A stretch of 64,000 bases of DNA from an uncultured Candidatus Poseidoniales archaeon (GCA_964570065.1 CAZMVZ010000001.1:41652-105651); one strand, 5' to 3'. Shown: positions 15,078 to 61,883, counted from the first letter of the stretch. The notes: generated by a model not told the origin, from the sequence alone. Numbers and translations: made by a program.

Positions 15078-18032
15078 ATGCGGCGCACAATCGTGCGAAA
15101 TCGCAACTCCCGCCTCTCTGTACGTAAAACTACACTGATCTCACTGTCATTGGTGTTATTGATGCTTATTCCCACTGGCTTCGATTTGGAATCTCCAGAA
15201 CTTCCCGATTACAAGGTATTCAATTCCTCAGAAAGTGCACCAGATGCCAACTTGTACAAGCTATACTTCGTACAACCGGGACAGAACCAGACTGCTGGAA
15301 TGGACGGATTGATCAGTACTAAACCGCCTGAGGGGAACGCGGATCAGGAAGTGGCAAGCGCATTGGATGACGATGTCCAATTCATGACCATTTCATTGAT
15401 GTCATCGATGGAATTCTTTGGGAGGAAGTTCCATGCAAATGACTCGTACTACATACCAGTTGAGCTATTCCTCAAGTCTGAAGGATCTCAGAATTCAAAT
15501 GTCGATTGGACAGTTTCCGTTATGACTTCTGAGAGAACCATTGGCTCCACAACTTATTCCGGTTCCGTATGCTCTTCATCATTTGGCAGCAGTTGCGATT
15601 TTGATCACGAGATTATCGACGTAGGGATAGGCAATTCCGAATCATTCCAAGTTGGGAAGAACGAGCGACTGATAATCAGGGTTAGAGCCAGCATGTCGGG
15701 GTGCGACAGTAGCGACAGCCCGTTCGGCGGATCTAGCTGTTCTGCAGATGTCGCATTCAACAACATCGATAATGAGCCAAACAAATTCTCCAAGATGGAG
15801 GCAAATGGAAATGCACTGATGAATAGCATCATCGTAGTCCAGAGGGAAGGTGCAAACATTGCTGATGGTTCCGTGATAGATTGGTACCCGAATGACATTG
15901 TCGAGGACAGGGAGATGCAGTTCTCAATAGATGCAATCAGCGCATTTGGGAGGGCGGATATTTCAAGGGTTGACATCCTGATGAGGGGCCCGGATGGGAA
16001 CTATGAGGTCGATGAAAGAATAACTGGTGACATGGAGGAAATAGAGGATTCCAGCACAGGAGTCTTTGGCAAATTCCTTTTCACCTACGATAGTGGACTT
16101 TCTCCCGGGGAGTATACTGTATTTCTCAGGGTCCGGGATGTCGGTGGTAACGAAATTGAAATCGAGCACGAACCAATAGAGATGCATCAGTTCGGAGTGT
16201 CACTGAAGCACAGGTTCGATCGTTCAGTTGAGTACTTCGCCCCGGGTAAGGTCACCCCCGTCCCGATGGTTCTTGTCCATAGGGGGGACTCCACCAAGTC
16301 GATGAACGTAGAACTTGAAGTTTTGACCAATTTGGGCAGCTCTTGGTTGGTTGAGTTCGACTCCCCAGCAGGATACGAGATGAGCTCTGGGGGTACGGTG
16401 ATTAATCCAACTGTGACTCTCACAGCACCCGATGATCTGACCGGGATGCCGAAGAAGATTGAGATTCGAGCAGTCGCTGAGGCCGATGTGGATGGGGTTA
16501 TCTCGGTTGTCCATCAGGATACGCTCGTACTAAACGTGGAGAAGATTGACGTCTACCAGCCCCCGGTAGTTTCAGTCTGGTCCGAGGATCACAAAACACC
16601 GATAGCTAACTCTTCCAGAGGTGATGCCCTGGATTCGACCATCCCCAGATTCGCCGAGTACGGGGAATTCAACCCATTTATTTTGGAGATTTTCAATACT
16701 GGTTTTGATGCCGATACATTCAGGATCGACATTCTGAAGAGGTCGAAATCAATCTTCCAATTGCACGATAATCTAACTGGGCAGAGGATACTTCAAGATG
16801 AGGGTGATGGGACTTTCCACACTCCTTTACTGGAGAGGCACAGCACCAAGGTCCTGATTCTGGGGGTTAAGCCAAGCCTAGACAGGGAGGATGAGGATAT
16901 CGGGGAGATTGAGATAGAAGTAATCAGTGGAGGAAATGCCTCTACCACAACTACTGTTTCATTCACAATCCAGAGAACATTTGGGATAAGGGGGGAGGTC
17001 TCACAGGATTGTGATGGGACGCCTCTAGGCCACATGAAGGTGGCACTTTGTGCGCCCGGTCAGGATAGGCCTGAATTGGACTTCAGGGCGCGATTGACGA
17101 ATAGTGAGACGAATCTGGAAGCAGCATCATGGTGGTTGCTTCAGAACCCCGCATCGTTGAAGGAAAATACCGACAGAAACTCTGCTTATGGCCAATGGGA
17201 TTTCAGAATAACAAATTCGGATGGAGAATCAGTTCCTCGAGTATCCCTTGGGCCCGGAGACTTCACAGAGGTCTTCATCAGCGTAACCCTGACTAATCAG
17301 GTAGAGGTTGGGAATCATACTGTCTACCTGAGGATTGTTGAGGATATAGAAGAAGACGAACCAAGATATTTCGATCTTCCTATGACCTTCGAAATTGAAG
17401 CCGACCAACCAATGTTGGAGATTGTTCAGGTTTCCCAGAATACTAAACTTGCACCTGGAAATGACTATTCTATCCAGATGAAAGTGAAGAATGAAGGAAA
17501 CAGTCCAATGACCGTTCTGCTTGAAGCTGACGTAGACGAGAGTGGGTGGGATGTGAGCATCGGTGGCCTTTCGGGTTCCCCCTTGATAGAAATTGAAGCA
17601 TTTGACGAGGCCACATTTACTGTCGAGGTTTCTGTGTCTAGTTCGGCAAACAACGGAGATTCAATTCCGATTTCAGTTACTGCCACCCCACTAGACACAG
17701 AGCAGAGTTTCCCGGAGTCTCTAACCGCCAAGTTCACTCTTACGGCAATAGTAGAGATCGGGTCTTTCGTCGATATAATTGTTAACGAAATGGCCCATCC
17801 TAGGCCAATCACTCTTGTTCTGGTATTGGTCAGTGTTCTATTGCTGTTCGCTGGTATTCAGAGCAGGCTCAATAGGAGAAGGTGGGCAGCACAGATGAGG
17901 ATGCTGGAGACTCTATCTGACGATGAGGTTGAAGTCCAAGAAAACACTCCTGAGATTCCCGCACCAGTAACCGTAGAGGAAGAACATAGGGGCGTAGATA
18001 AGTACGACGATGACGATGTCGAGCTGATATAG
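15078..18032 (+). CDS. Large type-I membrane surface protein (984 aa) with CARDB/Ig-like beta domains, C-terminal TM anchor and acidic cytoplasmic tail
   Basis: N-terminal signal/TM (LISLSLVLLMLIP), long beta-rich ectodomain with CARDB-like segments, C-terminal TM (ITLVLVLVSVLLLFAGI), and tail DDEVEVQENTPEIP…DDDDVELI. Confidence 0.8.
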   Translation: MRRTIVRNRNSRLSVRKTTLISLSLVLLMLIPTGFDLESPELPDYKVFNSSESAPDANLYKLYFVQPGQNQTAGMDGLISTKPPEGNADQEVASALDDDVQFMTISLMSSMEFFGRKFHANDSYYIPVELFLKSEGSQNSNVDWTVSVMTSERTIGSTTYSGSVCSSSFGSSCDFDHEIIDVGIGNSESFQVGKNERLIIRVRASMSGCDSSDSPFGGSSCSADVAFNNIDNEPNKFSKMEANGNALMNSIIVVQREGANIADGSVIDWYPNDIVEDREMQFSIDAISAFGRADISRVDILMRGPDGNYEVDERITGDMEEIEDSSTGVFGKFLFTYDSGLSPGEYTVFLRVRDVGGNEIEIEHEPIEMHQFGVSLKHRFDRSVEYFAPGKVTPVPMVLVHRGDSTKSMNVELEVLTNLGSSWLVEFDSPAGYEMSSGGTVINPTVTLTAPDDLTGMPKKIEIRAVAEADVDGVISVVHQDTLVLNVEKIDVYQPPVVSVWSEDHKTPIANSSRGDALDSTIPRFAEYGEFNPFILEIFNTGFDADTFRIDILKRSKSIFQLHDNLTGQRILQDEGDGTFHTPLLERHSTKVLILGVKPSLDREDEDIGEIEIEVISGGNASTTTTVSFTIQRTFGIRGEVSQDCDGTPLGHMKVALCAPGQDRPELDFRARLTNSETNLEAASWWLLQNPASLKENTDRNSAYGQWDFRITNSDGESVPRVSLGPGDFTEVFISVTLTNQVEVGNHTVYLRIVEDIEEDEPRYFDLPMTFEIEADQPMLEIVQVSQNTKLAPGNDYSIQMKVKNEGNSPMTVLLEADVDESGWDVSIGGLSGSPLIEIEAFDEATFTVEVSVSSSANNGDSIPISVTATPLDTEQSFPESLTAKFTLTAIVEIGSFVDIIVNEMAHPRPITLVLVLVSVLLLFAGIQSRLNRRRWAAQMRMLETLSDDEVEVQENTPEIPAPVTVEEEHRGVDKYDDDDVELI

Positions 18033-18107
18033 TCTGCAAATGTACGAACGACGCTCCATTCTTCTTAAGACCCAAAGTTAGCGGCCTACAAAACGAGACT
18101 GGCATCT

Positions 18108-21100
18108 ATGCATTTAGCAAATCCAAATTATGGAGAATCTGGGCCCGCGGCCAAGAAGAGATCAGCCTCACTTCTGACCTTCTTGATACTAATGTCAGGG
18201 GGGGCCTCCATGCAATTAGCCGTCTTCGAGGCCTCTGCTACTGTGAACGACCAGGATGCAGACGGACTCCCGTATGGGATTGAGTTCCTGATCAACACTC
18301 AGCCACAGGATTGGGACTCGGATAACGATGGGCTCCCTGATGGATGGGAATGGCAATATGGTTTAGACCCCCTATCGTCATCTGGAGATAACGGCTCCAC
18401 CGGAGATCCCGACTCCGACGGACTCACAAATCTGAACGAGTATCTTTACGGAATCCCCTCGGGTTGGGATGAGCCATCCACTACGAACGTCCTGGACAAT
18501 GGAGTTTGGTGGAATGGAACTATTCCTGTTTCGAACTGGGACGAGGAGAGCGCCATGCAAGTGATTCAGGGTTCTGGTTCAGACGGTGCAGACGAGGATC
18601 CGGTAGGAAACATCTGCACAGATACGTTCGACAACGATCACGATGGAATGGTTGATTCCAATGATCCAGACTTCGATGGGGATGCCGATTGCAGCTCCAA
18701 TGATGATGATGGAGACGGAATCGAAGATGAGGATCCCAATGGTTGGGATACCGATGGAGACGGGATGCCAGATGGGTGGGAGGCAGCAAATGGCCTTGAT
18801 CCGACCTCGAACTCAAACCAAGATGGGACTTTTGGGGACCCAGACTCAGACGGGCTATCAAACATTTACGAGTACGTCAACCCTGCATGGGGGACTAGGA
18901 ATGGGACGACATTCCCACCAACACAATACTTCAGACCCGGGCCAATCAACATGACGATAACTGAGTCACCCTGTAATCCAGTACTTTCCCTCGGCCCTGG
19001 GGGGTGTGGAATCTTTACCGCCGAGGTCGATGGCATTACCCAGACCGACCCACAGAACAACGACACCGATGGAGATGGCCTGAATGACTCCCTGGAGGGA
19101 CTCATCTTACTTACTGACCCAACCTCTCCGGATACTGACTCGGATGGAATTCTCGATGGAATCGAATACAATGGCTCGTATGGTGATCCGGCCCAGGGAT
19201 CAGACCCTAGGGATAACAACACGGACGGAGACCATTTGGATGATGGAGACGAAGATCTGAATGGCAATGGGGTGGTTGATCCAGGTGAGACAGATCCAAC
19301 GAGAATCAACGACGAGGGCGATTTCGATGGTGATGGGCTGCAAAACTGGGAGGAGAACAACTCCTGCACTCTATGGAACGTTTCCGACTCAGATGGAGGT
19401 GGAATAAGTGATGGAGACGAAGGCTTCCCCGGGCAGACCGATCCGTGTACATCCATTTTCGAACTTGTTTTCACAATTATTTCCTGGGATGGAGATGCCG
19501 ACACGCTAACCATCAACTCCACAGAAGGGATCAATCCAGATCCGGTGGATTGGAGGGGAAATGCGCCAATGGCTTACTTCGTATCCCCCAATGGAACTCG
19601 GACCCCATTCAGCTATGCCTCCCTGGAGGCGCCATCCTTCCTGAAAGGGGTGGATACAGAACCCCCAACAGGCGCAGCAACGATTCTGTTCACCAACGGC
19701 TCTTGGTGTTGGGATGCTTCTGTCAATGCCACAAACGACCCATGGTGCGATGATGACTACAAGGACTCGGATGGAGATGGTCTCGCAGACTGGGAAGAAT
19801 TGACAGCAGCTTGGGGGTTCCTATCTGACCCGACACTATACGATTCCGATGGAGACGGCGTCAATGACCTATCCGAAACTCTGAATCTAACTGACCCAAG
19901 AGAGCCCTGTCACAATCTCCTAGATTCCGATGAGGATGGCCTCAACAACTACTTCGAGAATACAACGGGATGCTCAATGATTTTTGGAATCGGGGGTTTT
20001 GGATTCGGAGGCAATTTCACATCTGACGTTTGGTTCACTCTCTGGAACGTAGCAGATACCGACAATGGAGGGGTCGAGGACGGGCAGGAATATCTAGACG
20101 GGACAAACCCTCAAGACAATCCTGATGACGACATCAACCCCCTCGATACTGATGGCGATGGCATACCTGACATAATCGAGCAGGATATAGGAACTGACTG
20201 GCTTGACCCAGATTCCGATGGAGGGGGAATCCCTGATGGGGAAGAATGCCCCGAGGATTTCTGGGTTCTGGACTGCATAGGGTCTCCCGGCGATCCTTTC
20301 GATCCTATTGATGACATACAAGAGAACGCACTGATGTTCACTGCTACCAATAGTTCCGAGGGACTAGATCCAACTGTCAAACACTACTGGAGGTGGCATA
20401 CCTATGACTTCTACACCGGGGTTTCGTGGGGCGTGAATAGCACCCTCGTGGGCAATACCCAAGTTACTCCGGAATTCTCAACAGAACAAGGGGTGGCAGA
20501 CCAGTCTTTCTGGAATCACTCAGGACCACTATCTTGGGAGATAGTTTTCGATGAAGCTGGATACATCGGTCCCGGACAGGAACTAATACAACCTCACAAT
20601 GTGGTGAATTACACGGCATGGGTGGATAGTTCCGCCGGTCTCAACTTCTCGAACTACACTCGTGACATAATCGTCGATAGTGCCGTCATCGAAGCTCTAT
20701 ACGTCAACGCTCCGGAGGTGGTATTATCCGCTGTAATTCGTGAGAATTCGACAGCATTCGCCGATTCCGATTACGGCAAGGATCTACCTCCGGACTTCAT
20801 GAACAACTCAGGTTTCGTCGCTAACCTTACTCAGGATGTCATAGACCAGTCGGGGGCTATCTCAGCATGGGACAAGGTCACTGCTATCCAGAATTTCATA
20901 GTGAACGGTAATGAAACAATTTCTTTCCTAAGGAATCACTACGGTTCGGGTAGGGAAAGCGGTCTTGGGATAGATAGTGATGTTTCACATTGGATTCTAA
21001 ATTCATCTAGGGAAGGAGACTGTGATGAGTTTACCTCGGTCTTTGTGACTATGCTTAGGATGGCAGGTATCCCTGCACGCAAGGTCACTGGCTTTTCAGG

Positions 21101-24100
21101 TGGCTCATGGGATGGCAAGGCATTCAAAGTGTACGGAAAAGACTTCACTAGATGGGCCGAGGTTCATCTCCAGACCAATCAGAACCAGGGTGAGCTAGAT
21201 CTTGGTTGGATTCCCTTCGAAGCTTGTCCCCCGATGTCTGAAGTAAGGATTAATGTGGAGTCTTGGGGGCCAACGTCAGTTGAGAGGAATACAACGACAT
21301 CAGAACACATCTGGGTCGAGGGGACCTTGGAGTTTGTAGAGAACCAGACTCTGGTGGATAACATATCACTCTCAATGTACCTTGTCGAACCCAGTCAATC
21401 CGAAGAGGTGCCCGGAAGTGCCGCCATTCTGGAGCACGTGGTGGCCAATGTTACAACGAATGAAAATGGCTCATTCAATCTAACAGGACTTCCTCCTCAA
21501 ATAATACAACCAGGTTTCGGATCTCTGGTGATCCTTACCACCGAGATGGGATATGTCGGCATCCAGGGAATTTCCATGCCGTGGCAAGTCAATATCACAG
21601 ATGACGTATCCTTGTCTATTACCAGTCCAATTCCAGTAGGTCAACCAATGCTTGGGATTGGGGTCAATTCTTCAATAACCGGACAACTTTCTTGGGCAAG
21701 TTCACCTTTCTTGGACCCTTCAATTGTGGATGACCTGCAGGTCGTTCTGAACTACTCTTCGGATGTAGATGGCGAAGTTTCGGTTGTTTCCGGTGTATCC
21801 GGAGGGGGATATTACGAGTTCATAGTACCAATCGACGAGACAGAACCTCTTGGATTAATGGATGCTGCTATTTCATTCCAGGGTTGGCATTTCGAAGATC
21901 TGAACAATGCCACCCTCCCTTCTTACCACGCGCTTCCGGGTATCCTGCCCTTCAAGCTGAACATCACGCTATCTCCAAACCTAACAGTAGGGATTCAGTC
22001 CCAAGGACAGAATAACTCGATTCTGGAGATTGGAAGCAATATCTATCTGAACGGAACAGTACTCAGTAGAGGCCCGTCTCCTTCTCCGCTGAATGGGACA
22101 TTGATTCTAGAGATGCGAAGAGCTGATCTCTCTGGACCATTCCAAGAGTTGACCACATGGTACCTCAATGACTCCTCATGGGGCTCCACTCCGGGGGATT
22201 TCTCAATCGCTTGGCCCTTCTCTGCCTCTGACGTCCCCCTCCCTGCGGGGCCGGTTGATGTACGTCTGCAGTTCGACTCCGATGACTTGAATTCGAATGA
22301 CCAAGAACAATTTGTCGATGTCTACGGAATACGGAGCTTCGTTGTTTTCGATTACGAACTTGCCTTCGCCATCAGGGGCAGGGAGTATGCCGTTGACGTA
22401 TTACTAGAGGATCACACTGGCTCGTCTTTTGCTCCATTTGATGGCGAATATACCTTACTTTTTGATGGGGACCTCGTTTGGAACGAAACCGATCCTGACG
22501 CTGGACGGGTAACTCCAACCTTCACTCCATCTTTTGGCATGATCCCGGGGGACTATTTTTGGAACCTCAGCTATGGTGGCTCCACTTGGCTCAGCCCCAA
22601 TTCTACATCAGGTCTTCTAAGGGTCCGAGGAATGGGCAATGCATCCGCAAGTGTCTCTAATGATTGGTCCGTCAGAGGATCGACAAACTGGATCTCTGGA
22701 TTCGCAAGAGATATGGTGCTGCAGAACCAGATTACCGGAAACAACACTTCCGTAACTGTGCAGCTTCTGGTACCCTCGACCCTACCTCCCACTCCAGGCG
22801 GATTCCCAGCAGCCCCCACGATCTACAATATCGCAAACGGTTGGGTGGACGAAGCAACAGGTGCATACAATCTTTCATTCGAGATTCCACAGGGTATTCC
22901 TTCTGGCGTATACGAGATTGATGTCACTTTGAGTTTCTCTGGTAACCCTCCAGAAGGAGGAAGCTACTACAACGCAGGAGATCCAACAACAATCAGTTTA
23001 GGCGTGCAGACGGAGTTTGTAGTCGAGACCGACCCCCAGTCTTCGATAGTTACTGCCGGGGAAGAATTGCTCCTCCAGTCTACTGTAACGGATGTTGAGG
23101 ACCCAAATGCAGAACTGTCTGGTGTGTCTTTGGATCTCTACTTCGACTGGGGTGGGCCTCTCCAGACAATACTCCAATCTGGAACTACTAACTCTGGAGG
23201 AATTGTCTCCTTCGATCCAATTGTCCCGTCCACCGCTCCACCCGGATATTACGACATTAGGGTTCACGCGGCTGACGATCTTTCTGATAACCTCACAACG
23301 CCCGGAGCGGGAAGATGGCTCGGGAACGAGAGTTTCGTGAATCTAACTGTACAGGTTGTCAGCTCAGTTGAGATTACCTCAATTCCTTCCCAAGTTACTG
23401 CACTACAATCCTTCAACTTAGTGGGCAATGTGATGGATTCAGTAGTTGCCAATAGAACCGTAGACGGACCAGTTGGCATCAATGTATTCTTCCTTGACGA
23501 ACCAGAAGAACTTCTAATTAATAATCAAACTACGAATATTACTGGAGCGTTCAACCTCATAGTTCCAACCGATACCCTCGGAAACGGTGTCCTCAGAGGA
23601 GACAGGACCCTAGTCGTTAGCGTAGTCAATGGCTCGACACCGTTCTACCTGACTGGCAACGGGGATGCATCGATACTAGTGGTGGGGGTTTCCCAATTCG
23701 TAGACTCAAATCCGTTTGTGAATACCATTGTGGACCGTGGCGAATCAATCACCATTACGACTAGGCTAGTAGAGTTCAGCAACAACGAGAATCCACTTTC
23801 AGGCTTCGAAGTGTGGGCTCGTTTCCACGATACTTGGCTCGATCCGGGCGTAACTGCTGCTGATGGAAGTATTGCCTTCGAATTCGAAGTCCCTCATGAC
23901 CACCCTCTGGGGCTCGTTAATGTCACCTTTGTCTTCAACGGTTCCGTTGACCTCCACCAAGCAGTGCTGACTCTGAATACCATCACAGTGAGATCTACAG
24001 CTACCATGGTAATAGATCCGATAACTGCAAACCCGCTTCCAGGAGAATTCTTCAACGTCACAGGCTCTTTGACATCTAGTAACGGATCGGGACTATCTGA

Positions 24101-27069: not shown

Positions 27070-27522
27070 TCAATCCAACTTGATTGCAATGAATTCCCCT
27101 TCCCAAATTGCCCCTGAAACACGCCTCTCCTTTGGTAGCCGGAATGACCTGATCAATCCTCCAAACCTCTCTGGGGAAATAACTCTGACAACCTGAGAAT
27201 CATTGTCGTTCGTAGTCTCGATGGTAAACTCATTCTTGTTGGTAGTTGGCAAGGGGATCCTAATCTCAGATTCCGACCATTCTCCTCCGAACTCAGAGAC
27301 AAACTCACCCAAAGTGGAAACAGACTCGCTCAGGACTCTCGACTCGATTTCAGAGACTACCGAGTCATGCATCCCCATTACTTCAGAGAGATGGGGCAAC
27401 TCATTTAGGAATCCTCGATGCATGGACTCTGCATCTGTATCAAGGCCTACTTTCAGATCGGCCAGACCACCAATTGACTCTATTTCTGCATCAGATTGGA
27501 CATCAACCCTGGTCCACTCCAT
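27070..27522 (-). CDS. Small heat-shock protein (Hsp20/alpha-crystallin-like), tentative
   Basis: The C-terminal half (…EIRIPLPTTNKNEFTIE…VVRVISPE…LIRSFRLPKE…GAIWEGEFIAIKL) follows the alpha-crystallin-domain beta-strand pattern. Similarity is weak, so treat as a hypothesis. Confidence 0.45.
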   Translation of the reverse strand: MEWTRVDVQSDAEIESIGGLADLKVGLDTDAESMHRGFLNELPHLSEVMGMHDSVVSEIESRVLSESVSTLGEFVSEFGGEWSESEIRIPLPTTNKNEFTIETTNDNDSQVVRVISPERFGGLIRSFRLPKERRVSGAIWEGEFIAIKLD

Positions 27523-29599: not shown

Positions 29600-29814
29600 C
29601 CCAATTCATAGCATTCCATCTGGTAAGATTCGGGTTGCCCCGCACGCGTGGTGCGGGACGGTGTGTGTGTTGAGTTCTAACTCTGATCTGCTTTCCTGGG
29701 GATACGAGGGGCTTCGCTGGGGTCGTAACCAACTGCGTTGCTAAGCTTCTTCGCCCTGTTTCTGATGTTTCTCAGCCCGTTGCCAAATCTCCTGGCATCG
29801 CTTGATTGGTGGTT

Positions 29815-29839
29815 GGGGGAGCGGACACGCCGCTCCCCC
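29815..29839. terminator. Perfect 10-bp stem / 5-nt loop hairpin (GGGGGAGCGG-acacg-CCGCTCCCCC) ~45 nt downstream of the RHH regulator stop
   Basis: The palindrome is read directly. Its position is consistent with a transcript-end structure. Archaeal termination usually uses oligo-T, so the function is inferred. Confidence 0.4.
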
Positions 29840-29882
29840 GAGTTCTCTCTGTGCATCCCAACTTCGCCCATATCTCTCTCTC

Positions 29883-30230
29883 CTAAGCGTTTGAATCCTC
29901 ATCGTGTCTGAAGCGCAACTCATCCATGCGCTTTCTCAGTAGGTCCACTACCGTGGCCCCTTCGATCATCTCCTTGCGGATCATCTCCCTTGCCGATTGT
30001 CTTAGGACAACATCCGCCGGCTCACCAACAATCTTGCAGTAGTCTCTCAGCCTGACAGTTAACTCCGGGCCTAGGTCCACTTCCACTCGATCCCCCTTTC
30101 CAGGAAGGGGTGTCGACAGCATCCTCCTCACTGCCTCTCTAATCACGTCGGACCTGTTTCTCATCCCATCGAAGCCCACGAGTCTGTCTAGTTCCAGGAG
30201 GTGATCCTCTGGAATCCTCATCGAGACCAT
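29883..30230 (-). CDS. Ribbon-helix-helix (CopG/NikR-N-like) transcriptional regulator
   Basis: MVSMRIPEDHLLELDRLVGFDGMRNRSDVIREAVRRML is a canonical RHH beta-alpha-alpha. The start was chosen at this Met because the sequence upstream (30231-30349) is AT-rich promoter-like DNA. Confidence 0.6.
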   Translation of the reverse strand: MVSMRIPEDHLLELDRLVGFDGMRNRSDVIREAVRRMLSTPLPGKGDRVEVDLGPELTVRLRDYCKIVGEPADVVLRQSAREMIRKEMIEGATVVDLLRKRMDELRFRHDEDSNA

Positions 30231-30290
30231 TGGACTGTTGCCGGGCACCTCCTGTTCCTCCTGAGTCTGCCAGAGACGCGTACAGGATAT

Positions 30291-30349
30291 AATTGTATTG
30301 CAATTGAAATGCAAATGAAATACAATAACGATATTATTGAAACATCCTA
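30291..30349. promoter_or_regulatory. AT-rich divergent promoter/operator region between the RHH regulator and the HD hydrolase, containing palindrome ATTGCAAT and TGCAA direct repeats
   Basis: aattgtATTGCAATtgaaaTGCAAatgaaatacaataacgatattattgaaa is the only strongly AT-rich tract nearby. It holds an 8-bp perfect palindrome and TATA-like atattatt ~20 nt upstream of the HD ATG. Confidence 0.4.
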
Positions 30350-30352
30350 TTG

Positions 30353-47001: not shown

Positions 47002-47022
47002 TACTACTTGCCTCAGCGCACA

Positions 47023-48279: not shown

Positions 48280-48345
48280 ATTGACGATAATTGACGAAAC
48301 TCCTTGTCCCTATGGTTAAATTGTCTAGATGTAGTCCGATGGATT

Positions 48346-52608: not shown

Positions 52609-52663
52609 TGTAGATTCCAAGTTCTACTAACATTTGTATATTGAGTGAGATAGTGTTGAGTAT

Positions 52664-55192: not shown

Positions 55193-56053
55193 TCACGCCG
55201 CTACAATGCTATTCGGCTCAGACTGTCCAGTCCAATAACTAAATTCGGGACCAAGTTGCTTAGAAATAGAGATATTTCCAGCAAACTCATCGCCAATTGC
55301 CATCAGAACCTCGCTCTCAGCCAAATGGGGTGCGTTATTCTTCTCTGAAAGGTGACAAAGGACAATACTCTCCAAATCGTCGTGTAAAACTTCCAGTAGT
55401 ATCTCTCCAGCTTGCCTATTTGAAAGGTGCCCACCTCTTCCTGAAATCCTCCTCTTCAGAGAGTCGGGATAAGGCCCTCCAACTAATCTTTGATGGTCGT
55501 AGTTTGATTCAATAGAAATGTGGTTGCAACCAGATAAATGTTTGATTAGGTCTTGCGGTGCTTCTCCCAAATCTGTAACAATTGCAGCCCGACCCCCATT
55601 CCTATCACTGGCAATTAGCGCCACATTATCTGCATCATCATGAGGTACGGGGACCGGCAGCATACTCAGCTCTGATGAGAACTGAACCCTCTCTAGATTA
55701 CCAAATGTCATACACTCTTCCACTAAATCCCAACCCATTTTCGATGCAGTTCCTAGATTACAGTGTAGTCTGGAATCCCACTTCTTTGAGGCCCTAAGTG
55801 CCGAACAAGAGTGATCCTTGTGATGATGAGTAACCACAATAGAATCAATAGAACTCGGCTCAAATCCTGCTATGCCAAGTCTCTTTTCTGTCTGTTTGAG
55901 ACTGAAACCACAATCGACTAGGACATTACAGTCCCCAGAACTGACAATAGTCGCATTTCCACGACTGCCAGAACCCAAGTGAGTAATCCCAATCCCCATT
56001 GATTCACGTGCGGTTACAGACGACCTTTCAACAAATCCATGCCCATAGGCCAA
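55193..56053 (-). CDS. Metallo-beta-lactamase-fold hydrolase
   Basis: VVTHHHKDH (HxHxDH zinc motif) plus downstream His/Asp ligands. Convergent with the STAND gene, with stops abutting. Confidence 0.8.
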   Translation of the reverse strand: MAYGHGFVERSSVTARESMGIGITHLGSGSRGNATIVSSGDCNVLVDCGFSLKQTEKRLGIAGFEPSSIDSIVVTHHHKDHSCSALRASKKWDSRLHCNLGTASKMGWDLVEECMTFGNLERVQFSSELSMLPVPVPHDDADNVALIASDRNGGRAAIVTDLGEAPQDLIKHLSGCNHISIESNYDHQRLVGGPYPDSLKRRISGRGGHLSNRQAGEILLEVLHDDLESIVLCHLSEKNNAPHLAESEVLMAIGDEFAGNISISKQLGPEFSYWTGQSEPNSIVAA

Positions 56054-56171
56054 TTATTGCTATTTTCAAACATCAGAAACCATTCTAGGCCCTTCTAATG
56101 ACATATGTCCGAACGACGCTCCATCATCATGATAAATCTCTGAACCCGGGATTTTGCATAGAGGTGGGCGG

Positions 56172-59100
56172 ATGCGTAGGAAGCAAACAGCTTTACTAGT
56201 CACAATGTTGATTTTTTCTAGCCTCGCATTCGTCTCTCAGACTCGTCCACAATCTCCCGTATCCTCCACAGATCCAAATATGGCCGAGGGTGCAGAATCT
56301 CCGGTTACCGACCAAGACGGAGACTTAATGCCCGATCTATTTGAGGTAATTTTTGGAGAATCTGTAGAAATTGAGACTGCAACATTCCAGGGCACCATAC
56401 CCGGCCTCAATCCATCCGATTCTACTGATAATTCAACCGATTACGACAGGGATGGATTAACTGCCCTGCAAGAATACTGCTGGCCTTATACTTTGGATAA
56501 CTGCTTCGAAGAACGCAATACACTAACGGGAAAATCTCCAGAGGAAAGCGAATCTGGATTGAGAGAGTATCTTGACCCCAGATCTTCGGATACCGATGGC
56601 GATGGCTTGCCTGATGGATACGAAGTACACATGTGCACTTTGGGTGGCCTATACAAAAAAGATCCAAATGACCCTTTGAATCCAAACAATTTCTGGGAAT
56701 GCCGATATTTCGATCCACTCGATCCTAGCGATATCAATATCGATTTTGACAGGTGTGAGGCGGACTTCAGTTGGGGTTGCGGGGATGGATTCGATTTCAA
56801 TAGTGATGGGAACATTGACCTTGGAGAAATGTTCACCAATGTGGAGGAATACTCACTGGGAATTCCTGATGACTGGATTACCGAGAGGGACGGACTCTGG
56901 TGCTGGGGTTCAATTCAAGGACTCTCTGAAGACTCGTGTCAGACCCAGTTTGAGAGGCCAACTGGAGAATCAGGATGGATGGGATCTGACCCTAGATTCT
57001 CCGACTCAGACTACTTCTACTGGGATGAAATAGCCCCTGCTCCATTAGATGTATTGGGAGATGGAATTCCTGATGGTTGGGAGGCCCAATATGGGCTGGA
57101 TCCTTTGAATTCCAGCGATGCGATAATTGACAGCGATTTAGATGGATGGGACAAAGACAAGGACGGTTTCATTACGGAGGATGTAACTATAGGGACATCC
57201 CAGTGGGGCGAGTCATTCAGTAATTTCGAAGAGTACTCAGTGGACTTCGATGAAAACTCAGGAGTTATTCCTGGAGTGAGGGGAATTGAGATTTCTTCCG
57301 ATTCCAATAACCTGATTAATTTCGATCATTCAACCGCAATAAGGCTAGTCGACTCTGCCGTACATAGTATAATTTCAGACCAATCAAGAGAGAGGTTGTT
57401 GGTTGGAAGTAAATATGGGATTACGGCATTAGATCCATTCAGAGGAATTTCGACGTCATTTGAATTCCCCCCGGGAATTGAATTACACACAATGGAAAGG
57501 AACTCAGTAGGAAACATAGATTTCCTGATGTTGGGGTCAAATTTGGGCCTACACACGGTAATTCTAGAAAACGGACTCCCAGTTATGGATTCTCTAACTA
57601 CTCATGAACTGGGAGAAGCAACTGTTCTATTTCGACTCGCCTCTGACTCATTTGATCCAGGAATCCTGATTATGGGCAAGGATGGAGTCTGGCGGACGAC
57701 ATTCTCTGAGGATGAACAATCTCTTTCCACTTCTGAAATGATTTTCGTAGAGTCGCTCTCATCAATGCTAAGAAAGTCAAACGCGACAGCAACTTCTGCA
57801 GGGCATGCCAAGATTTTTGGAAGAACACCAATTCTACTAATAGGGACAGATTTCGGCCTAATTGCCTGGAATTCTACAGATGGCTCTGACAACAATGGGA
57901 TGCCATGGTGGGTTTTCACAAGAAATAATGCCGATGAATTCGTTAGCCCAGATATCCTGGACACCACTAAGACTGCAACTGTCAATTCCATAATGGTAGA
58001 AATTTCTGAACAGGGCTCTGACGATGTGTGGTTGGGGATGGGAGGGGGACTCCATCTAATCACAATGGACCTATTTATTTCCCAACCGAAGGAGGCTATC
58101 GGCAACGAGAGAATGCTCAATCTAGAGGGTCTACTAACTGGTGCTAATGATATTCGCTCTATCCTTCCTCTTGAGGGGATGATCGTTCTAGGTTCTTCAG
58201 ACGGAACTTGGTGTCTAGAAGGGAGTTCGGATGGAATTCTGGATATCCGTCAGAACCAGACAGATATCCCCGGTCTGGTTACCTCACTCACTACTCTGGA
58301 AAGAGAAGGTCAAATCTGGGTTTTCGCCGGCGTCTCACCTGGACGATTCATGAATATAGCTCCGATGAACCCACATTCCCATGATTCTGACCTTGATGGG
58401 ATTCCTGACGGTTGGGAGTTCGCATACGGTCTCGACCCAACGGATCCATTTGACGCCTCTAGAGATCATGATGCCGACGGAGTCTCCATCGGCGGTGGCA
58501 GCGGTCCTGGATTCGACAGATTGTGGACTAACTTGGAGGAGTATAGGTTCGTCACTCCCTCGAATTTTGGACAAAACGGAACCGACCCCAGAATTGCAGA
58601 CTCGGACGGAGACGGATTAACTGATGGCGAGGAGTACTGGGGTTGGTTCGTTGACTCAACATCATTCGAGTGCTACTACCTCAATCAGAATTATCTGTGC
58701 GATTCCGGCGTTGGTACATCTGCAGAGGAAGTTCACCTCGGTGGATGGACCGGAACAGGTTCGAGTGGCGGCAGTGATCTACCGACCGATCCGACGAACC
58801 CAGACTCAGATGGAGATGGTATGCCCGATGGATGGGAAATCAAACATCGTCGATGGATTGGAGACATCTACACCGGGGGTAATGAATGGACATTGGACCC
58901 CAATAATCCCAACGATGCTTATGGTGATGCCGATGGAGACGGACTAACCAATCTATGCGAGTATGAGTGGGAAAGACTGCTCGATAGGTCAATTTCCACC
59001 GGTATCATCTCTCATGGTGAATCTCCTGATTCAGTGCAAAATTGGACCCCAACCGATCCAAATTCTGTAGATTCAGATTCGGACTCACTGCCCGATGGTT

Positions 59101-61883
59101 GGGAAGCTCGCTATTCATGCAACTGGCCATCTTCGGATTCAGGAATCAATCCTATGAATGGCTCTGATGCATTGAATAATCCTGATGGGGATGGATTTGA
59201 TGTCAACAAGAACGGGATTATTGAATCCGAAGAAGCATTTGTTAATTGGATGGAATATCATATTAAATCCGACATCTTGCTTTCTGATTCAATATATTCA
59301 GGAACCATGTATCCAGATAATCATACATCATCATTGCCACATCATTCATGGCAAGGTCTGGCTGACGAATCATTCGGAGAAAGAACGGGGGAGTACTACC
59401 TATCTCTGTGGACAGGATTGCCAAACGAAGACATCGGCTCCTCAGATCCGTTAAATTCCGACTCTGATAACGACGGCATGCCTGATGGGTGGGAGGTCTT
59501 CCATGCAAGATGGAGTCTTTTCGATAGTGATTGGACACTCAATCCAGTCAATGGGGGGGATGGTCTTGGAGATCCCGACTTGGATGGGATGTCAAATTGG
59601 GAAGAGTACAATGCAATCGATAGTGATATTAGCGAATCAGACCCTACCATCTCATCGCCCCAGTTCTACCTAACCGATGCTGCCGGGGCTCTCCTCGAGA
59701 CTCCATGGATTGGTGCCGACTCGGCTCTTTCGTTTGGCCATTTTTTGACTGAAGAGCAATCCAATCTGACAGGAACTTCTGCTGACCCTAACAATCCAGA
59801 TACTGACGGAGATGGTTTGCTGGATGGGATTGAAGTGATTTTCACCACTTGGAATTCAAGCGCTGGCGTTTGGACCCTTAATCCACTAATACCCAATCAG
59901 GGTGGTTTCGACTCGGATGGCGATGGTATTGGTGATCTGGTCGAACTAAACCTTACTGCAAACCTCCCTATAAACGGGGAATCTTATCCTATGGGGGCAC
60001 CAACATTTGGCGTAGAATCGAGAGAAATAGATGAGATGGCTTTCGAAAACAGGATATTTAGGATCCTATTCAGTAAAGAAGGAAGGGCCGAGCTAGGAAT
60101 GGAGCAATACTTGGAGTGGAAATCTGGTTTGCCAGCAAAGCCGATGCTCCAGGCAATCTTTGGAATCACGGATCCAAAGGATCAGGATACTGATAGGGAT
60201 GGGATGAGCGATGGATACGAGTACTGGTTCTCGGAGTGGGATCTAGAGGAAAACCAGTGGACGATGAACCCTCTGACTGATTCAGACGTAGATTTCGACT
60301 CCGACGACGACTCATTCGATTGCAACGGAGACGGAGAAATCTCCGACTCTGAATCTTTCGACAATTTGGCAGAGTACGACTCTAGGTGGTATGGGAAGAG
60401 GTTGGAGGTAGGAAACGTCCCAAACGGGACTTCTGCTGTCTCATATGGTGCCGATGCAGCCAATGCCTTCATTGAAGAGGATGGCCTTTCCAATAAATCC
60501 GCATGGGGCCAACTTTACTCTCTGTTCTCATCCAAGAGCCTCAGTTCTTCTGAAAAGATCGGCCTGATCAACCAGGTCGACCCAGACAACTTCAACAAAT
60601 CCCTAATTGGAATCAGTGACCCCACTCACGATGACTCGGATGGAGACGGAATGCCAGATGGTTGGGAATACTGCTACTCAATTTACGACGAGGTCTTACC
60701 AGTCAACTCATTCCGTTGGTCATTAAACCCTCTCAACCCACTTGATGTTAATTATGATCCAGATGCAGATGGTTGGTTGGACAGGGAGATATTAGATACA
60801 CCTGCAGTCCAAGGAAATTGGGATTCCAGAACATTCACACCACTCTCGGAAGACCAGCAATTCGAAAATGGCGCTAGCTCACTTTATTTCACAAATATAA
60901 TGGAATATGATAACGGAACCGGACCATTGGATCCAGATTCAGACTCCGATTCAATTATTATGACCCCAGTCATAGTAGATGGTGTGGTAATTGACTATCG
61001 CCAAGACATGAGTCTATCAGACGGAAGAGAGATGTTCAAGTATGGGACAAATCCACTTGACAATGATTCTGATGGAGACATGATGCCTGACTTCTATGAG
61101 TATTATAGAGGTTGGAATGAGACCAACGATAACTGGTCTTCTTTCATGAAAATCAAAGTTCAGTGGACCGAGGTGACACCCCAGAACTGGAAGCCAATAA
61201 AATTTTCAGACGGTGAGATTACAAGGCCGGATTTGGACTGGATATGGTTTACTCATGATCCAACAGATCCATCGGATGCGACACAAGACGCAGATAATGA
61301 TGGCGAGTGGGACTGTACGGGGAGCAGTTGCGATTACGTCCCATACAACAATTTCCAAGAGTATTACGCAGTTGTCAATGCGACGCTATCTTCACCTTCG
61401 ATTGTCAGGGCTTCAACTTTGTTCGACTGCTCCGGAGAAGAGGTGGAAGAATGGTGGCAACTTCGTGAGACTCTCCTTGGCACCTGTTCAGGTTCAAGCT
61501 CACTATCTTCCAACTATCTGCGAATTAACAAAATCAATGACGACGACTCACTCTATGCTTTGATAGTTCAAGATAATGACTTGACATACTTAGATGTAAA
61601 CTCTAGTGATGATATTATTCATGTCAATGGAGAATGGACGGATGAATTCAACAGGCTCGCAGGAGATAGAAATCACTTGCCAAATCCTGGGCTAGGGGAA
61701 TATGCATTTGGTTGGTGGATTCTAGATATTGATGGAGATTTGGTTGCTGAAGGTACCGACCCAACAAATTGGGATACCGATGGCGATTGGTTGAATGACT
61801 TCTTCGAGATCGACGATGATCTACTTGACGGAATTAGGGGCAATAGCGGTTCACCGATTCGCTACGATGATAGGACTTCATGA
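56172..61883 (+). CDS. Giant secreted protein (~1900 aa) built largely of TSP3/EF-hand-like Ca-binding repeats, no C-terminal TM
   Basis: Signal peptide (LLVTMLIFSSLAFVSQT). About 20 copies of D-x-D-x-D-G-[LMI]-P-D-G-[WY]-E followed by GLDP/NPL spacers. Central beta-propeller-like segment. No hydrophobic C-terminal helix. Confidence 0.85.
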   Translation: MRRKQTALLVTMLIFSSLAFVSQTRPQSPVSSTDPNMAEGAESPVTDQDGDLMPDLFEVIFGESVEIETATFQGTIPGLNPSDSTDNSTDYDRDGLTALQEYCWPYTLDNCFEERNTLTGKSPEESESGLREYLDPRSSDTDGDGLPDGYEVHMCTLGGLYKKDPNDPLNPNNFWECRYFDPLDPSDINIDFDRCEADFSWGCGDGFDFNSDGNIDLGEMFTNVEEYSLGIPDDWITERDGLWCWGSIQGLSEDSCQTQFERPTGESGWMGSDPRFSDSDYFYWDEIAPAPLDVLGDGIPDGWEAQYGLDPLNSSDAIIDSDLDGWDKDKDGFITEDVTIGTSQWGESFSNFEEYSVDFDENSGVIPGVRGIEISSDSNNLINFDHSTAIRLVDSAVHSIISDQSRERLLVGSKYGITALDPFRGISTSFEFPPGIELHTMERNSVGNIDFLMLGSNLGLHTVILENGLPVMDSLTTHELGEATVLFRLASDSFDPGILIMGKDGVWRTTFSEDEQSLSTSEMIFVESLSSMLRKSNATATSAGHAKIFGRTPILLIGTDFGLIAWNSTDGSDNNGMPWWVFTRNNADEFVSPDILDTTKTATVNSIMVEISEQGSDDVWLGMGGGLHLITMDLFISQPKEAIGNERMLNLEGLLTGANDIRSILPLEGMIVLGSSDGTWCLEGSSDGILDIRQNQTDIPGLVTSLTTLEREGQIWVFAGVSPGRFMNIAPMNPHSHDSDLDGIPDGWEFAYGLDPTDPFDASRDHDADGVSIGGGSGPGFDRLWTNLEEYRFVTPSNFGQNGTDPRIADSDGDGLTDGEEYWGWFVDSTSFECYYLNQNYLCDSGVGTSAEEVHLGGWTGTGSSGGSDLPTDPTNPDSDGDGMPDGWEIKHRRWIGDIYTGGNEWTLDPNNPNDAYGDADGDGLTNLCEYEWERLLDRSISTGIISHGESPDSVQNWTPTDPNSVDSDSDSLPDGWEARYSCNWPSSDSGINPMNGSDALNNPDGDGFDVNKNGIIESEEAFVNWMEYHIKSDILLSDSIYSGTMYPDNHTSSLPHHSWQGLADESFGERTGEYYLSLWTGLPNEDIGSSDPLNSDSDNDGMPDGWEVFHARWSLFDSDWTLNPVNGGDGLGDPDLDGMSNWEEYNAIDSDISESDPTISSPQFYLTDAAGALLETPWIGADSALSFGHFLTEEQSNLTGTSADPNNPDTDGDGLLDGIEVIFTTWNSSAGVWTLNPLIPNQGGFDSDGDGIGDLVELNLTANLPINGESYPMGAPTFGVESREIDEMAFENRIFRILFSKEGRAELGMEQYLEWKSGLPAKPMLQAIFGITDPKDQDTDRDGMSDGYEYWFSEWDLEENQWTMNPLTDSDVDFDSDDDSFDCNGDGEISDSESFDNLAEYDSRWYGKRLEVGNVPNGTSAVSYGADAANAFIEEDGLSNKSAWGQLYSLFSSKSLSSSEKIGLINQVDPDNFNKSLIGISDPTHDDSDGDGMPDGWEYCYSIYDEVLPVNSFRWSLNPLNPLDVNYDPDADGWLDREILDTPAVQGNWDSRTFTPLSEDQQFENGASSLYFTNIMEYDNGTGPLDPDSDSDSIIMTPVIVDGVVIDYRQDMSLSDGREMFKYGTNPLDNDSDGDMMPDFYEYYRGWNETNDNWSSFMKIKVQWTEVTPQNWKPIKFSDGEITRPDLDWIWFTHDPTDPSDATQDADNDGEWDCTGSSCDYVPYNNFQEYYAVVNATLSSPSIVRASTLFDCSGEEVEEWWQLRETLLGTCSGSSSLSSNYLRINKINDDDSLYALIVQDNDLTYLDVNSSDDIIHVNGEWTDEFNRLAGDRNHLPNPGLGEYAFGWWILDIDGDLVAEGTDPTNWDTDGDWLNDFFEIDDDLLDGIRGNSGSPIRYDDRTS

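Follow-up and report, generated by a model that had tools for sequence, protein, structure and literature searches.

Syntenic modules of giant predicted envelope proteins and a giant AglB-type oligosaccharyltransferase in Candidatus Poseidoniales

The 64,000 nt of DNA analysed here (the window) originate from an archaeon of Candidatus Poseidoniales (Marine Group II, MGII), with Thalassarchaeaceae as the nearest family. Marine Group II comprises abundant, uncultured archaea of the ocean. Positions 15078-61883 had been predicted to form one island of about 47 kb, dominated by giant surface-protein genes. ORF calling confirmed six large ORFs of 984, 2986, 3310, 1434, 1909 and 597 aa, which cover 33,678 of the 46,806 nt (72%; about two-thirds had been estimated). 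As expected, most of the products carry a C-terminal TM anchor or TSP3 repeats (a TM anchor in five of the six, TSP3 in the 2986-aa and 1909-aa proteins), and a single-TM S8 subtilase, a wHTH-AAA_16-TPR protein of the STAND type and an MBL-fold hydrolase are interspersed between them. Five of the large proteins show an N-terminal hydrophobic segment in hydropathy plots, consistent with a signal peptide. The assumption that all of them have signal peptides does not hold for the 3310-aa ORF, which begins with about 14 TM helices and encodes a polytopic enzyme.

The view of a surface-protein island had to be given up, since housekeeping genes for XPD helicase, two RHH-type proteins, an HD phosphohydrolase, glutamate dehydrogenase (GDH), CDP-archaeol synthase (CarS) and PurD interrupt the interval, about 7.8 kb in all. 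Nor is it a single 47-kb unit, as two related loci (L009 and L010) have the left module without the right module after it. The interval rather consists of at least two separable modules that are syntenic across the order, with housekeeping genes between them. Module A comprises the genes for the 984-aa and 2986-aa proteins, and module B has the order CarS-PurD-AglB-S8-1434aa-STAND-MBL-1909aa.

A tRNA-Leu(TAA) gene (14891-14976, minus strand), detected by ARAGORN and Rfam, marks the left boundary. The first gene of module A (15078-18032, plus strand) encodes a 984-aa product predicted to be a type-I membrane protein: it has a hydrophobic segment at the N-terminus, a TM helix (residues 911-929) and, behind it, an acidic tail on the cytoplasmic side; Pfam searches gave only weak Ig-like matches. 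Its ortholog precedes that of the 2986-aa gene in every one of the 29 classified metagenomic contexts and in L009-L011, with identities of 31-56% in distant loci. The second gene (18108-27068, plus strand) encodes a candidate membrane glycoprotein of 2986 aa. After an N-terminal hydrophobic segment, its Ca-binding TSP3 region spans about residues 70-690 and its transglutaminase-like core residues 922-1039; β-sandwich domains of the MG/Ig-like type follow, and behind the TM helix at 2840-2858 lies DUF4129 (2894-2960) on the cytoplasmic side. The Pfam scores were 49.8 bits for PF01841 (cut-off 23), 25.3 bits for DUF4129 (cut-off 24.8) and 23.5 bits for the TSP3 family PF18884, the last just under its cut-off of 25; strict and loose motif definitions gave 8 and 15 TSP3 copies. 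Homologs of 2937-3017 aa align over their full length down to 40% identity, and the nearest solved relative is TgpA (6G49). In 16 sequences of this family the transglutaminase Cys is invariant, and 15 of them carry E or D at the acidic position. The position of the canonical His, two residues before a conserved Trp, is occupied by T, S, Q, D, A or N. Because this catalytic His is not conserved, the domain may be non-enzymatic.

Counting of sequons revealed 78 in the 2986-aa protein versus 28.6 expected (2.7-fold, z = 10.4), none of them in the cytoplasmic tail. All 14 homologs analysed are likewise enriched (z 5.5-13.6), and the 984-, 1434- and 1909-aa proteins show no enrichment. Between the 2986-aa gene and XPD there is always a gene for a conserved acidic protein, here of 150 aa (27070-27522, minus strand) and of 139-173 aa in L001-L011, which has no match in Pfam, NCBIfam or PADLOC.

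The genes that follow were assigned by Pfam and by the gene tables of eight related loci (L001-L008). On the minus strand these are the XPD helicase (27563-29599) and the two small RHH-type ORFs (29677-30314), and on the plus strand the HD phosphohydrolase (30350-31726), GDH (31824-33179), CarS (about 35000-35681) and PurD (35731-37002). This spacer of mixed strands (27563-37002) also includes the gene for the 597-aa protein (33164-34957, minus strand), which is predicted to be a type-I membrane protein and matches CARDB weakly. No other gene of the locus evolves as fast; the 597-aa protein is 34-64% identical in relatives whose PurD is 60-85% identical.

By its sequence, the largest ORF (37069-47001, plus strand, 3310 aa) is an AglB/STT3 oligosaccharyltransferase with intact catalytic motifs. 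We considered the label of a surface protein or adhesin for this ORF and rejected it, since STT3 profiles, active-site motifs and fold matches all identify AglB. Pfam STT3 (PF02516) scored 42.8 bits (cut-off 24.5), and TIGR04154 matched residues 368-990 with E = 1.8e-48, at 165 bits under the equivalog cut-off of 450 bits. The chain starts with an extra bundle of about eight TM helices (residues 1-355; 37069-38133) that matches no known family in Pfam and for which AF2 gave a pLDDT of 85-90 over residues 30-300. The true start is probably M17, and gene callers take the start of a 3294-aa product. The GT-C/STT3 catalytic core and an extracellular globular domain follow (residues ~356-1300; 38134-40965), then a predicted extracellular stalk of tandem β-sandwiches (residues ~1300-3279; 40966-46905) and, at the C-terminus, a TM anchor (residues 3280-3298; 46906-47001) with a short basic tail that closes with a conserved R..R...APF. 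The STT3/AglB domain, as well as the transglutaminase core and DUF4129 of the 2986-aa ORF, had been overlooked in the original prediction.

Alignment to A. fulgidus AglB (3WAJ, a chain of 875 residues) places D405 within GGSDPWY opposite GGNDPWY, and S-D521-H522-D523 opposite N-D-H-H. D405, D521-H522-D523 and the WWDYG motif (W957-G961; nt 39937-39951) show no variation in the 22 sequences compared. Behind WWDYG, where a DK or MI motif for the Ser/Thr pocket was looked for, inspection by eye revealed an invariant D995-T996...F1000-I1001, which fits neither the DK pattern DxxKxxx(M/I) nor the MI pattern MxxIxxx(I/V/W). With an AF2 model of the core of moderate quality (pLDDT 64), the top 16 Foldseek matches were AglB and STT3 chains (5GMY, 3WAK and 7E9S first), and PglB appeared at ranks 17, 19 and 20. 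For the stalk, AF2 predicted an all-β structure (residues 1501-2700, pLDDT 76) that matches CnaB, Ig and MG stalks in Foldseek. The stalk is sequon-enriched in 12 of 12 homologs (z 2-8), contains two to three TSP3 motifs near residues 2870-2900, and is nearly gapless with a conservation of 0.40-0.67. Among 1.84 billion representatives, the ~2,300-aa stalk occurs only fused to AglB proteins of ~3,150-3,230 aa, and every named carrier belongs to Poseidoniales. Giant AglB proteins of 2,944-3,338 aa make up more than 120 protein clusters. In GTDB species-representative genomes, 51 of 54 complete AglB genes encode 3,147-3,326 aa, and the giant form is the usual one in this set.

The S8 subtilase gene (47008-48279, plus strand) begins 6 nt past the AglB stop codon and is found downstream of AglB in all loci that extend far enough. 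Its product has one TM helix (residues 72-90) and would be membrane-anchored; the triad D124, H161 and S340 is intact, together with N256. After another 24 nt, a gene for a predicted type-I membrane protein of 1434 aa follows (48304-52608, plus strand). The protein combines a NosD-like, right-handed β-helix (residues ~279-466) with Ig-like domains, and its TM helix at 1363-1381 precedes an acidic tail. This is the best-conserved giant (56-89% identity and 1414-1471 aa in relatives, MGIIa included). The next gene (52664-55192, plus strand) encodes a STAND NTPase and candidate regulator with AAA_16 (37.6 bits, cut-off 32.6), Walker A GIAGIGKT, Walker B LIVIDD and a TPR array (TPR_12, 65 bits). 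Its N-terminal winged-helix-like region matched HTH_Crp_2 at 21.5 bits, under the cut-off of 27. With 72-90% identity in relatives and a fixed position, it is the best-conserved gene of the module. The MBL-fold hydrolase (55193-56053, minus strand), with the motif HHHKDH, is divergent from the 1909-aa gene and syntenic in L002-L008, L012 and L013. The sequence motifs of the active sites are intact in S8, STAND and MBL alike. The last large gene (56154-61883, plus strand; start probably at ATG 56172, giving 1903 aa) encodes an acidic TSP3-rich protein (19% Asp+Glu), predicted to be secreted because it has an N-terminal hydrophobic segment without a TM anchor. TSP3_bac (PF18884) scored 42.9 bits against a cut-off of 25, the motif count being 9 (strict) or 14 (loose), and homologs of 1884-1943 aa align over their full length down to 42% identity, including Candidatus Poseidoniaceae. 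A 173-aa ORF (61880-62401, plus strand) overlaps its stop codon by 4 nt. Metatranscriptomic data, one of the checks suggested with the original prediction, are available (Damashek 2021 supplement): aglB, the closely spaced S8 and β-helix genes and STAND are transcribed in situ, in the same samples and with similar coverage.

Our analysis also revealed a promoter-proximal element shared by the TSP3-rich giants, which is a new observation. The first promoter block (18040-18073, plus strand) consists of the 20-nt element ATGTACGAACGACGCTCCAT (18040-18059), 5 nt and a TATA-like box TTAAGACCC (18065-18073), with 48 nt between the end of the element and ATG 18108 of the 2986-aa gene. In the second block (56105-56138, plus strand) ATGTCCGAACGACGCTCCAT (56105-56124) is separated by 6 nt from the TATA-like box GATAAATC (56131-56138), and a Shine-Dalgarno-like GAGGTG and ATG 56172 of the 1909-aa gene follow. 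The element is found upstream of only these two genes, with two matches in the window versus 0.01 expected; both copies score 30-31 bits, and the next best site scores 14 bits. It is conserved across the order, and 101 of 120 metagenomic matches sit in the same two gene contexts. The two giants would be co-regulated via this element, on which the wHTH-STAND-TPR protein possibly acts, as its adjacency and conservation suggest.

The locus had been regarded as core rather than mobile, and native composition, conserved gene order and an ancestral tRNA agree with this. The tetranucleotide correlation between 15-62 kb and 1-15 kb is 0.90 (0.87 when one half of the flank is compared with the other), and gene order and lengths are kept down to 40-45% protein identity in both MGII families. 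Module A occurs in L009-L011 and in all 29 metagenomic contexts, and module B in L001-L008, L012, L013 and 51 of 54 genome loci, and the lengths of the complete AglB genes given above show that the giant ORFs are neither disrupted nor absent in relatives. The substitution rates of the giant proteins do not exceed those of adjacent housekeeping genes such as PurD and XPD (56-89% identity for the 1434-aa protein and 72-90% for STAND, compared to 60-85% for PurD and 39-82% for XPD). A horizontally acquired or mobile island, an assembly chimera or a STAND/MBL anti-virus defence island is effectively refuted and has next to no likelihood. The tRNA gene at the left edge could suggest integration, but it holds the identical place in the distant relatives L009, L010 and L011, so it is an ancestral syntenic feature and not an integration scar. 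GC drops slightly toward the right end, but tetranucleotide usage is native and synteny order-wide. Domain and repeat searches again found no integrase, transposase or CRISPR array in the window; they also yielded no other CRISPR-like or tandem array, and no Rfam element besides the one tRNA. The identical AglB gene on 11 contigs examined, from JGI and ENA assemblies, also counts against these readings. STAND NTPases and MBL proteins (Apyc1-like) are known from defence systems and there are weak precomputed Pfam matches, but PADLOC gave only generic TPR, subtilase and LmuA-fragment matches, and the strong conservation of STAND at a fixed position is unlike that of defence genes.

The interval had also been considered an adhesion locus, and the giants may be Ca-dependent adhesins that tie MGII cells to particles or phytoplankton, with AglB, protease and STAND merely supporting them. 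TSP3 Ca-binding repeats occur in two proteins and, together with β-sandwich stalks, are typical of adhesins; in Foldseek the stalk model resembles the stalks of pilin, Cna/Sdr and MpIBP adhesins. CglD and MtsD profiles (Myxococcus adhesion/cohesion) match the TSP3 regions, but far under their cut-offs and confined to these repeats. Thrombospondin and adhesion genes are indeed reported for MGII and read as attachment factors, but this role was drawn from domain names only (Rinke 2019, PMC6461757; Orsi 2015, PMC4511931). The evolutionary pattern does not indicate adhesion: the proteins have a fixed length, order-wide synteny and substitution rates like those of PurD and XPD, and BLASTP self-comparison and a search for tandem DNA repeats revealed no internal repeats. 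Near-identical tandem repeats, RTX motifs and secretion partners are all absent from the window, the largest ORF is an enzyme, and the locus is carried by mainly free-living MGIIb lineages. Adhesion is a possible function that can coexist with a structural role; as the main one we consider it rather unlikely. Even less probable is a degradative machinery in which the S8 protease, the giant with the transglutaminase-like core and the β-helix protein, tethered to the cell surface, hydrolyse high-molecular-weight organic matter. The S8 triad is intact, the transglutaminase-like core has a cysteine-protease fold with invariant Cys, β-helix/NosD folds are common among polysaccharide-active enzymes, and an M28 peptidase is encoded nearby (3473-5029). 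MGII are known degraders of protein and lipid (PMC6336850). Against degradation, less than 5% of the giant proteins consists of recognisable catalytic domains, the transglutaminase core lacks a conserved canonical His, and profile searches of the locus proteins matched no glycoside hydrolase or lyase families. The tight linkage to AglB and the strong sequon enrichment favour envelope biogenesis.

We therefore favour, with a probability of roughly 0.6, the view that the interval holds two ancient, vertically inherited cell-envelope modules amid housekeeping genes and is a core locus for biogenesis of a glycoprotein envelope, for which we infer a structural rather than an adhesive role. The active site of AglB would face outward, and its chain would continue as the ~2,300-aa β-sandwich stalk and return to the membrane via the C-terminal TM helix. 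AglB may N-glycosylate the emerging 2986-aa protein and its own stalk, for which the sequon enrichment in both is indirect evidence. The S8 subtilase may trim or mature envelope proteins, and the membrane-anchored giants and the secreted Ca-binding 1909-aa protein could form the glycoprotein coat of cells of a wall-less lineage. A further-reaching version of this envelope model, which we put forward only tentatively, is an order-specific coat in which AglB is itself a wall component that scaffolds and glycosylates the 2986-aa protein, and STAND runs a regulon of two genes. If this were true, a 2,300-aa β-sandwich arch of a 3,300-aa AglB, held in the membrane at both ends, would stand at the site of envelope assembly, and a dedicated STAND regulator would control two Ca-binding giants through a conserved 20-nt promoter element.

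Several known systems resemble parts of this locus. S-layer glycoproteins (Sulfolobus SlaA; Haloferax SLG with PGF-CTERM/ArtA) may serve as an analogy, being likewise large, secreted or anchored, acidic and sequon-rich, and dependent on AglB as we propose for the envelope proteins of this locus; SlaA has 31 sites, a density comparable to the 2.6 per 100 aa of the 2986-aa protein (PMC2948927). However, the giants share no sequence similarity with them, the PGF-CTERM motif is absent from the last 60 residues of every protein with NCBIfam models unmatched, and here the oligosaccharyltransferase itself bears a long extracellular array. Giant Ca2+-dependent adhesins (Marinomonas MpIBP, 4P99; RTX/Bap-type) are also very large, acidic and Ca-binding with β-sandwich stalks, whereas the giants of this locus have C-terminal TM anchors and are conserved in length and sequence like core genes; RTX nonapeptides are missing from the locus proteins, and T1SS ABC/MFP genes from the window. 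Like the 2986-aa protein, TgpA of Pseudomonas aeruginosa combines an external Transglut_core with conserved Cys, a TM helix and a cytoplasmic DUF4129. The 2986-aa protein differs by a single hydrophobic signal-like segment in place of the N-terminal DUF3488 TM domain, by the non-conserved His, by its richness in sequons and by TSP3 and MG/Ig-like domains that add about 2,500 residues. The STAND protein shares a P-loop NTPase, a TPR sensor array and a putative DNA-binding domain with MalT/AfsR-type regulators, but the profile matches are weak, far under the family cut-offs, and its HTH is N-terminal and winged-helix-like instead of a C-terminal LuxR type.

In eukaryotes, ribophorin I/OST1 and OST48/WBP1 place luminal β-rich domains beside STT3 and have a C-terminal TM anchor. 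They were not among the top Foldseek results for the AglB stalk, and we regard the likeness as a topological analogy only, with the domains of the giant AglB fused in cis and far larger. The best match in both sequence and fold is A. fulgidus AglB-L (3WAJ/5GMY/7E9S; GT66/STT3), in which a GT-C membrane domain is also followed by an external globular domain, and which shares the GGxDPWY Asp, the SDHD metal-binding motif and WWDYG. In the window the giant AglB has no visible archaeosortase or PGF-CTERM partner. Compared to the A. fulgidus protein of 868 aa, the giant AglB is about 3.7 times longer, and it adds an N-terminal TM bundle of about 355 aa, a β-sandwich extension of about 2,300 aa and a C-terminal membrane anchor.

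The interval 15078-61883 had been described in the original prediction as a single ~47-kb island dominated by giant surface-protein genes. Six large ORFs lie at the predicted positions and cover 72% of the interval: those of 984 aa (15078-18032, +), 2986 aa (18108-27068, +), 597 aa (33164-34957, -), 3310 aa (37069-47001, +), 1434 aa (48304-52608, +) and 1909 aa (56154-61883, +). The S8 subtilase (47008-48279, +), STAND protein (52664-55192, +) and MBL hydrolase (55193-56053, -) are also present, all three with intact catalytic motifs. The description of the content was right for the surface ORFs but passed over XPD, two RHH-type ORFs, an HD hydrolase, glutamate dehydrogenase, CDP-archaeol synthase and PurD. 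By hydropathy, the 984-, 2986-, 597- and 1434-aa proteins have a lone N-terminal hydrophobic segment and a C-terminal TM helix, and the 1909-aa protein has the N-terminal segment and no C-terminal TM helix; we infer signal peptides for these five. The claim that all the large proteins have one is wrong for the 3310-aa ORF, which has about 14 N-terminal TM helices and one at the C-terminus.

Comparison with homologous loci demonstrated that the interval consists of at least two modules and is not one island. Module B has the order CarS-PurD-AglB-S8-β-helix protein-STAND-MBL(-)-~1,900-aa protein and is kept in eight loci (L001-L008) with AglB identities from 100% down to 45%, and also in MGIIa (L013). 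Module A, with the order LipA-SDR-tRNA-~960-1,095-aa protein-~2,950-aa protein-~150-aa protein(-)-XPD(-), is kept in three loci (L009-L011), and in two of these (L009, L010) module B does not come next. The sole structural variation seen within module B is the insertion of three or four minus-strand genes between STAND and MBL in MGIIa-type loci (three in L013, 5100-8943; L012, 5173-8865), one of which has a faint DUF7289 match. In module A, a 150-aa acidic protein (27070-27522, -; 139-173 aa in relatives) without a family match is always encoded between the 2986-aa gene and XPD; it is convergent with the 2986-aa gene, the stops being 1 nt apart. A 173-aa ORF (61880-62401, +) has a 4-nt overlap (ATGA) with the stop codon of the 1909-aa gene, suggesting translational coupling; the 1909-aa ortholog of L012 is followed by a different gene.

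The largest ORF is AglB by sequence. The archaeal STT3 model matches residues 368-990 (E = 2e-48), and the alignment with A. fulgidus AglB, which starts at residue 355, spans GGSDPWY (D405), SDHD (521-523) and WWDYG (957-961), all invariant in the 22 diverse AglB sequences compared; a DK/MI motif was not identified in the giant AglB. Modelled with AF2 (pLDDT 64, pTM 0.60), residues 1-1200 retrieve AglB first, STT3 second and PglB third. Residues 1-355 are modelled with confidence as an extra helical TM bundle, which fits no known family and gave nothing significant in a Pfam search. Residues ~1300-3279 are predicted to be all-β, and in the model of residues 1501-2700 (pLDDT 76) they look like stalks built from CnaB, Ig and MG domains. 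A search of 1.84 billion representative proteins with this stalk segment gave just 157 matches; all full-length matches are proteins of ~3,150-3,230 aa with the segment at the same position, and every named carrier belongs to the Poseidoniales. In 15 diverse homologs the extension aligns nearly gaplessly at 40-67% identity to the query. A short conserved basic tail follows the C-terminal TM helix, and because of this helix the extracellular part would be tethered at both ends.

The giant AglB, several times the usual size and with a built-in extracellular stalk, seems to be present throughout the order. A complete AglB ORF was available from 54 species-representative genomes. It is 3,147-3,326 aa long in 51 of them; PurD lies upstream in all 54, and the S8 and β-helix genes lie downstream in 51, the sequence of the other three ending too soon. 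For two of the short ORFs (L055, L068) the remainder of the gene is still present ahead of S8, which indicates frameshifts, and the third (L046) runs past the end of the available sequence. The STAND gene of L012 (2981-5171) is likewise split into shorter ORFs with the remaining coding sequence still there. Such split ORFs in a few MAGs, some of them long-read and polished, are probably assembly frameshift errors, and less probably genuine pseudogenes.

The 2986-aa protein contains a Transglut_core domain, MG/Ig-like domains, TSP3 repeats, which are its most conserved region, a TM helix and a cytoplasmic DUF4129 domain. The nearest solved relative of the Transglut_core domain is P. aeruginosa TgpA, a weak match obtained with the isolated segment only; the catalytic Cys is invariant, and the canonical His position is not. 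Homologs of 2,937-3,017 aa align over the full length down to 40% identity. The 1434-aa protein combines a NosD-like β-helix with Ig-like domains, and the 1909-aa protein is very acidic, TSP3-rich and without an anchor, with homologs of 1,884-1,943 aa in both MGII families. A PDB sequence search with these three proteins gave no match at E <= 0.01. Assignment to the NCBIfam families CglD, MtsD or MtsC was rejected, as the matches are far below the cut-offs and cover TSP3 repeats only. No paralogy among the giant proteins besides the TSP3 stretches and no internal repeats in them were found.

Sequence composition points to likely substrates of AglB. The 2986-aa protein contains 78 N-X-S/T sequons versus 28.6 expected by shuffling (z = 10.4), with none in its cytoplasmic tail, and it is enriched in 14 of 14 homologs (z = 5.5-13.6). 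The AglB stalk (40966-46905) shows a moderate enrichment, seen in all 12 homologs examined (z = 2-8), and the remaining large proteins checked are not. Since the enrichment is limited to these two, they are the prime predicted AglB substrates, and the sequon-rich giant protein offers a specific prediction open to marine glycoproteomics.

The window contains exactly two copies of a 20-nt element, ATGT[AC]CGAACGACGCTCCAT (0.01 expected). Together with a TATA-like box it forms a block at 18040-18073, with the element 48 nt ahead of the start codon of the 2986-aa gene, and at 56105-56138, with the element 47 nt before ATG 56172, the probable true start of the 1909-aa gene. With a weight matrix both sites score 30-31 bits and the next best in the window 14 bits; this 14-bit match (31715-31734), within the end of the HD-hydrolase ORF and 90 nt ahead of where glutamate dehydrogenase starts, is probably due to chance. 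The 20-mer was not found before the 984-aa, AglB, S8, 1434-aa, STAND and 597-aa genes. In L001-L008, L010 and L011 the orthologs are preceded by it as well, and MGIIa (L012, L013) has diverged copies. A metagenome scan for the motif yielded 120 loci (L094-L213): the motif is followed by a 1909-aa ortholog (identity down to 31%) in 67 and by a 2986-aa ortholog in 29, and five show the same contexts truncated, so that the two giant-gene contexts account for 101. The other 19 fall in unrelated sequence and match by chance (L161, L170 and L171, for example, lie within unrelated bacterial genes), and no third regulon member was found among the 120. In the unique sequences (66 of the 1909-aa type, 29 of the 2986-aa type) the conserved part comprises only the 19/20-mer, 5-6 variable nt and the TATA-like box ([GC]ATAA[AG]T at the 1909-aa gene, CTTAAGACCC at the 2986-aa gene), with the start codon 28-67 nt past the motif.

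These comparisons identify an order-wide, two-gene promoter element. The block has the layout of an archaeal promoter with a putative upstream or BRE-overlapping factor site, the TATA and BRE positions being those we assume from general knowledge of archaeal promoters. We also considered a role of the CTCC core in RNA structure or as anti-Shine-Dalgarno sequence, but did not adopt it as the main reading, since the TATA-like box comes after the element. The wHTH-STAND-TPR protein always adjoins the 1909-aa gene and is the most conserved of its module, which makes it the obvious candidate for a regulator acting at the element. Cis-regulatory sites kept across an uncultured archaeal order are rare; this one provides a direct handle for STAND DNA-binding assays and transcript mapping.

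Transcripts of module B are documented in a published MGIIb bin, SIMO 19-2, which has the order carS, purD, aglB (9,537 nt), S8 'halolysin', a 4,173-nt hypothetical gene, STAND and MBL (PMC9723583). There, aglB, S8, the β-helix gene and STAND are covered by transcripts to a similar degree within the same samples, and aglB is among the transcripts enriched when the genus is active (log2FC 2.05) (PMC9723583). In the supplement of Damashek et al. 2021, STAND (SIMO Bin 19-2 gene 308) is named 'signal recognition particle receptor FtsY', MBL (gene 309) 'Ribonuclease BN' and PurD (gene 304) 'pyruvate carboxylase subunit A', which are likely misannotations.

By its homologs the host belongs to Ca. 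Poseidoniales (Marine Group II), with Ca. Thalassarchaeaceae as nearest named relatives; L026 is 97% identical across the first 1200 AglB residues. An assembly chimera is excluded, because the AglB gene occurs in identical form on 11 contigs from JGI and ENA assemblies. Tetranucleotide usage in 1-15 kb correlates with that in 15-62 kb at 0.90, compared with 0.87 between the flank halves. GC declines gradually rightward from 0.52 to 0.44 across 52001-64000 (GC3 0.38-0.49 in the STAND, MBL and 1909-aa genes), and since this runs on beyond the interval it is not an island boundary. Among side features, the gene for E2 (dihydrolipoamide acyltransferase) contains at 9930-9985 a perfect tandem repeat of an 18-nt unit (GGGAGCAGGGGCCGGAGC, 3.1 copies), which presumably codes for an inter-domain linker rich in Ala, Pro and Gly, and a 153-aa Arg/Leu-rich ORF (13645-14106, -) opposite the SDR gene (13695-14474, +) looks like a spurious antisense ORF.

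Taken together, the results are better explained by a core locus for envelope biogenesis than by a group of variable adhesins, by degradative machinery on the cell surface, or by a mobile island or defence island. The divergence of the giant proteins is equal to or lower than that of housekeeping neighbours: identities in relatives are 56-89% (1434-aa protein), 72-90% (STAND), 45-82% (AglB) and 40-58% (2986-aa protein), compared with 60-85% for PurD and 39-82% for XPD, and fast evolution is restricted to the 597-aa protein (34-64%). An envelope coat could mediate attachment too. Thrombospondin and adhesion domains are mentioned in the MGII literature (PMC6461757, PMC4511931); the locus cautions against taking such domain labels as proof of particle attachment in MGII ecology. 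As to a mobile or defence island, PADLOC found no defence system, and the predicted lack of CRISPR arrays and mobile-element genes was borne out: Rfam and tRNA searches and scans for tandem and other repeats detected no RNA element besides tRNA-Leu(TAA), and CRISPR arrays, tandem arrays and mobile-element genes are absent from the interval. Repeated DNA is confined to the TSP3 motif inside two ORFs. The tRNA-Leu (14891-14976) keeps its place in three loci with just 40-58% protein identity. The original observation is thus partly confirmed, and its interpretation as a core adhesion/cell-envelope locus partly supported.

Marine Group II is among the most abundant archaea of surface oceans and is uncultured; a core envelope-biogenesis locus supplies concrete, order-wide candidates for the main components of its cell envelope. 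Our literature searches found no description of the promoter element or of the giant transglutaminase-like protein, and the giant AglB annotated (as aglB in a supplementary table) with no discussion of it. The architecture of this AglB is conserved and unprecedented, and is of interest for archaeal glycosylation and for the evolution of multi-subunit OST complexes.
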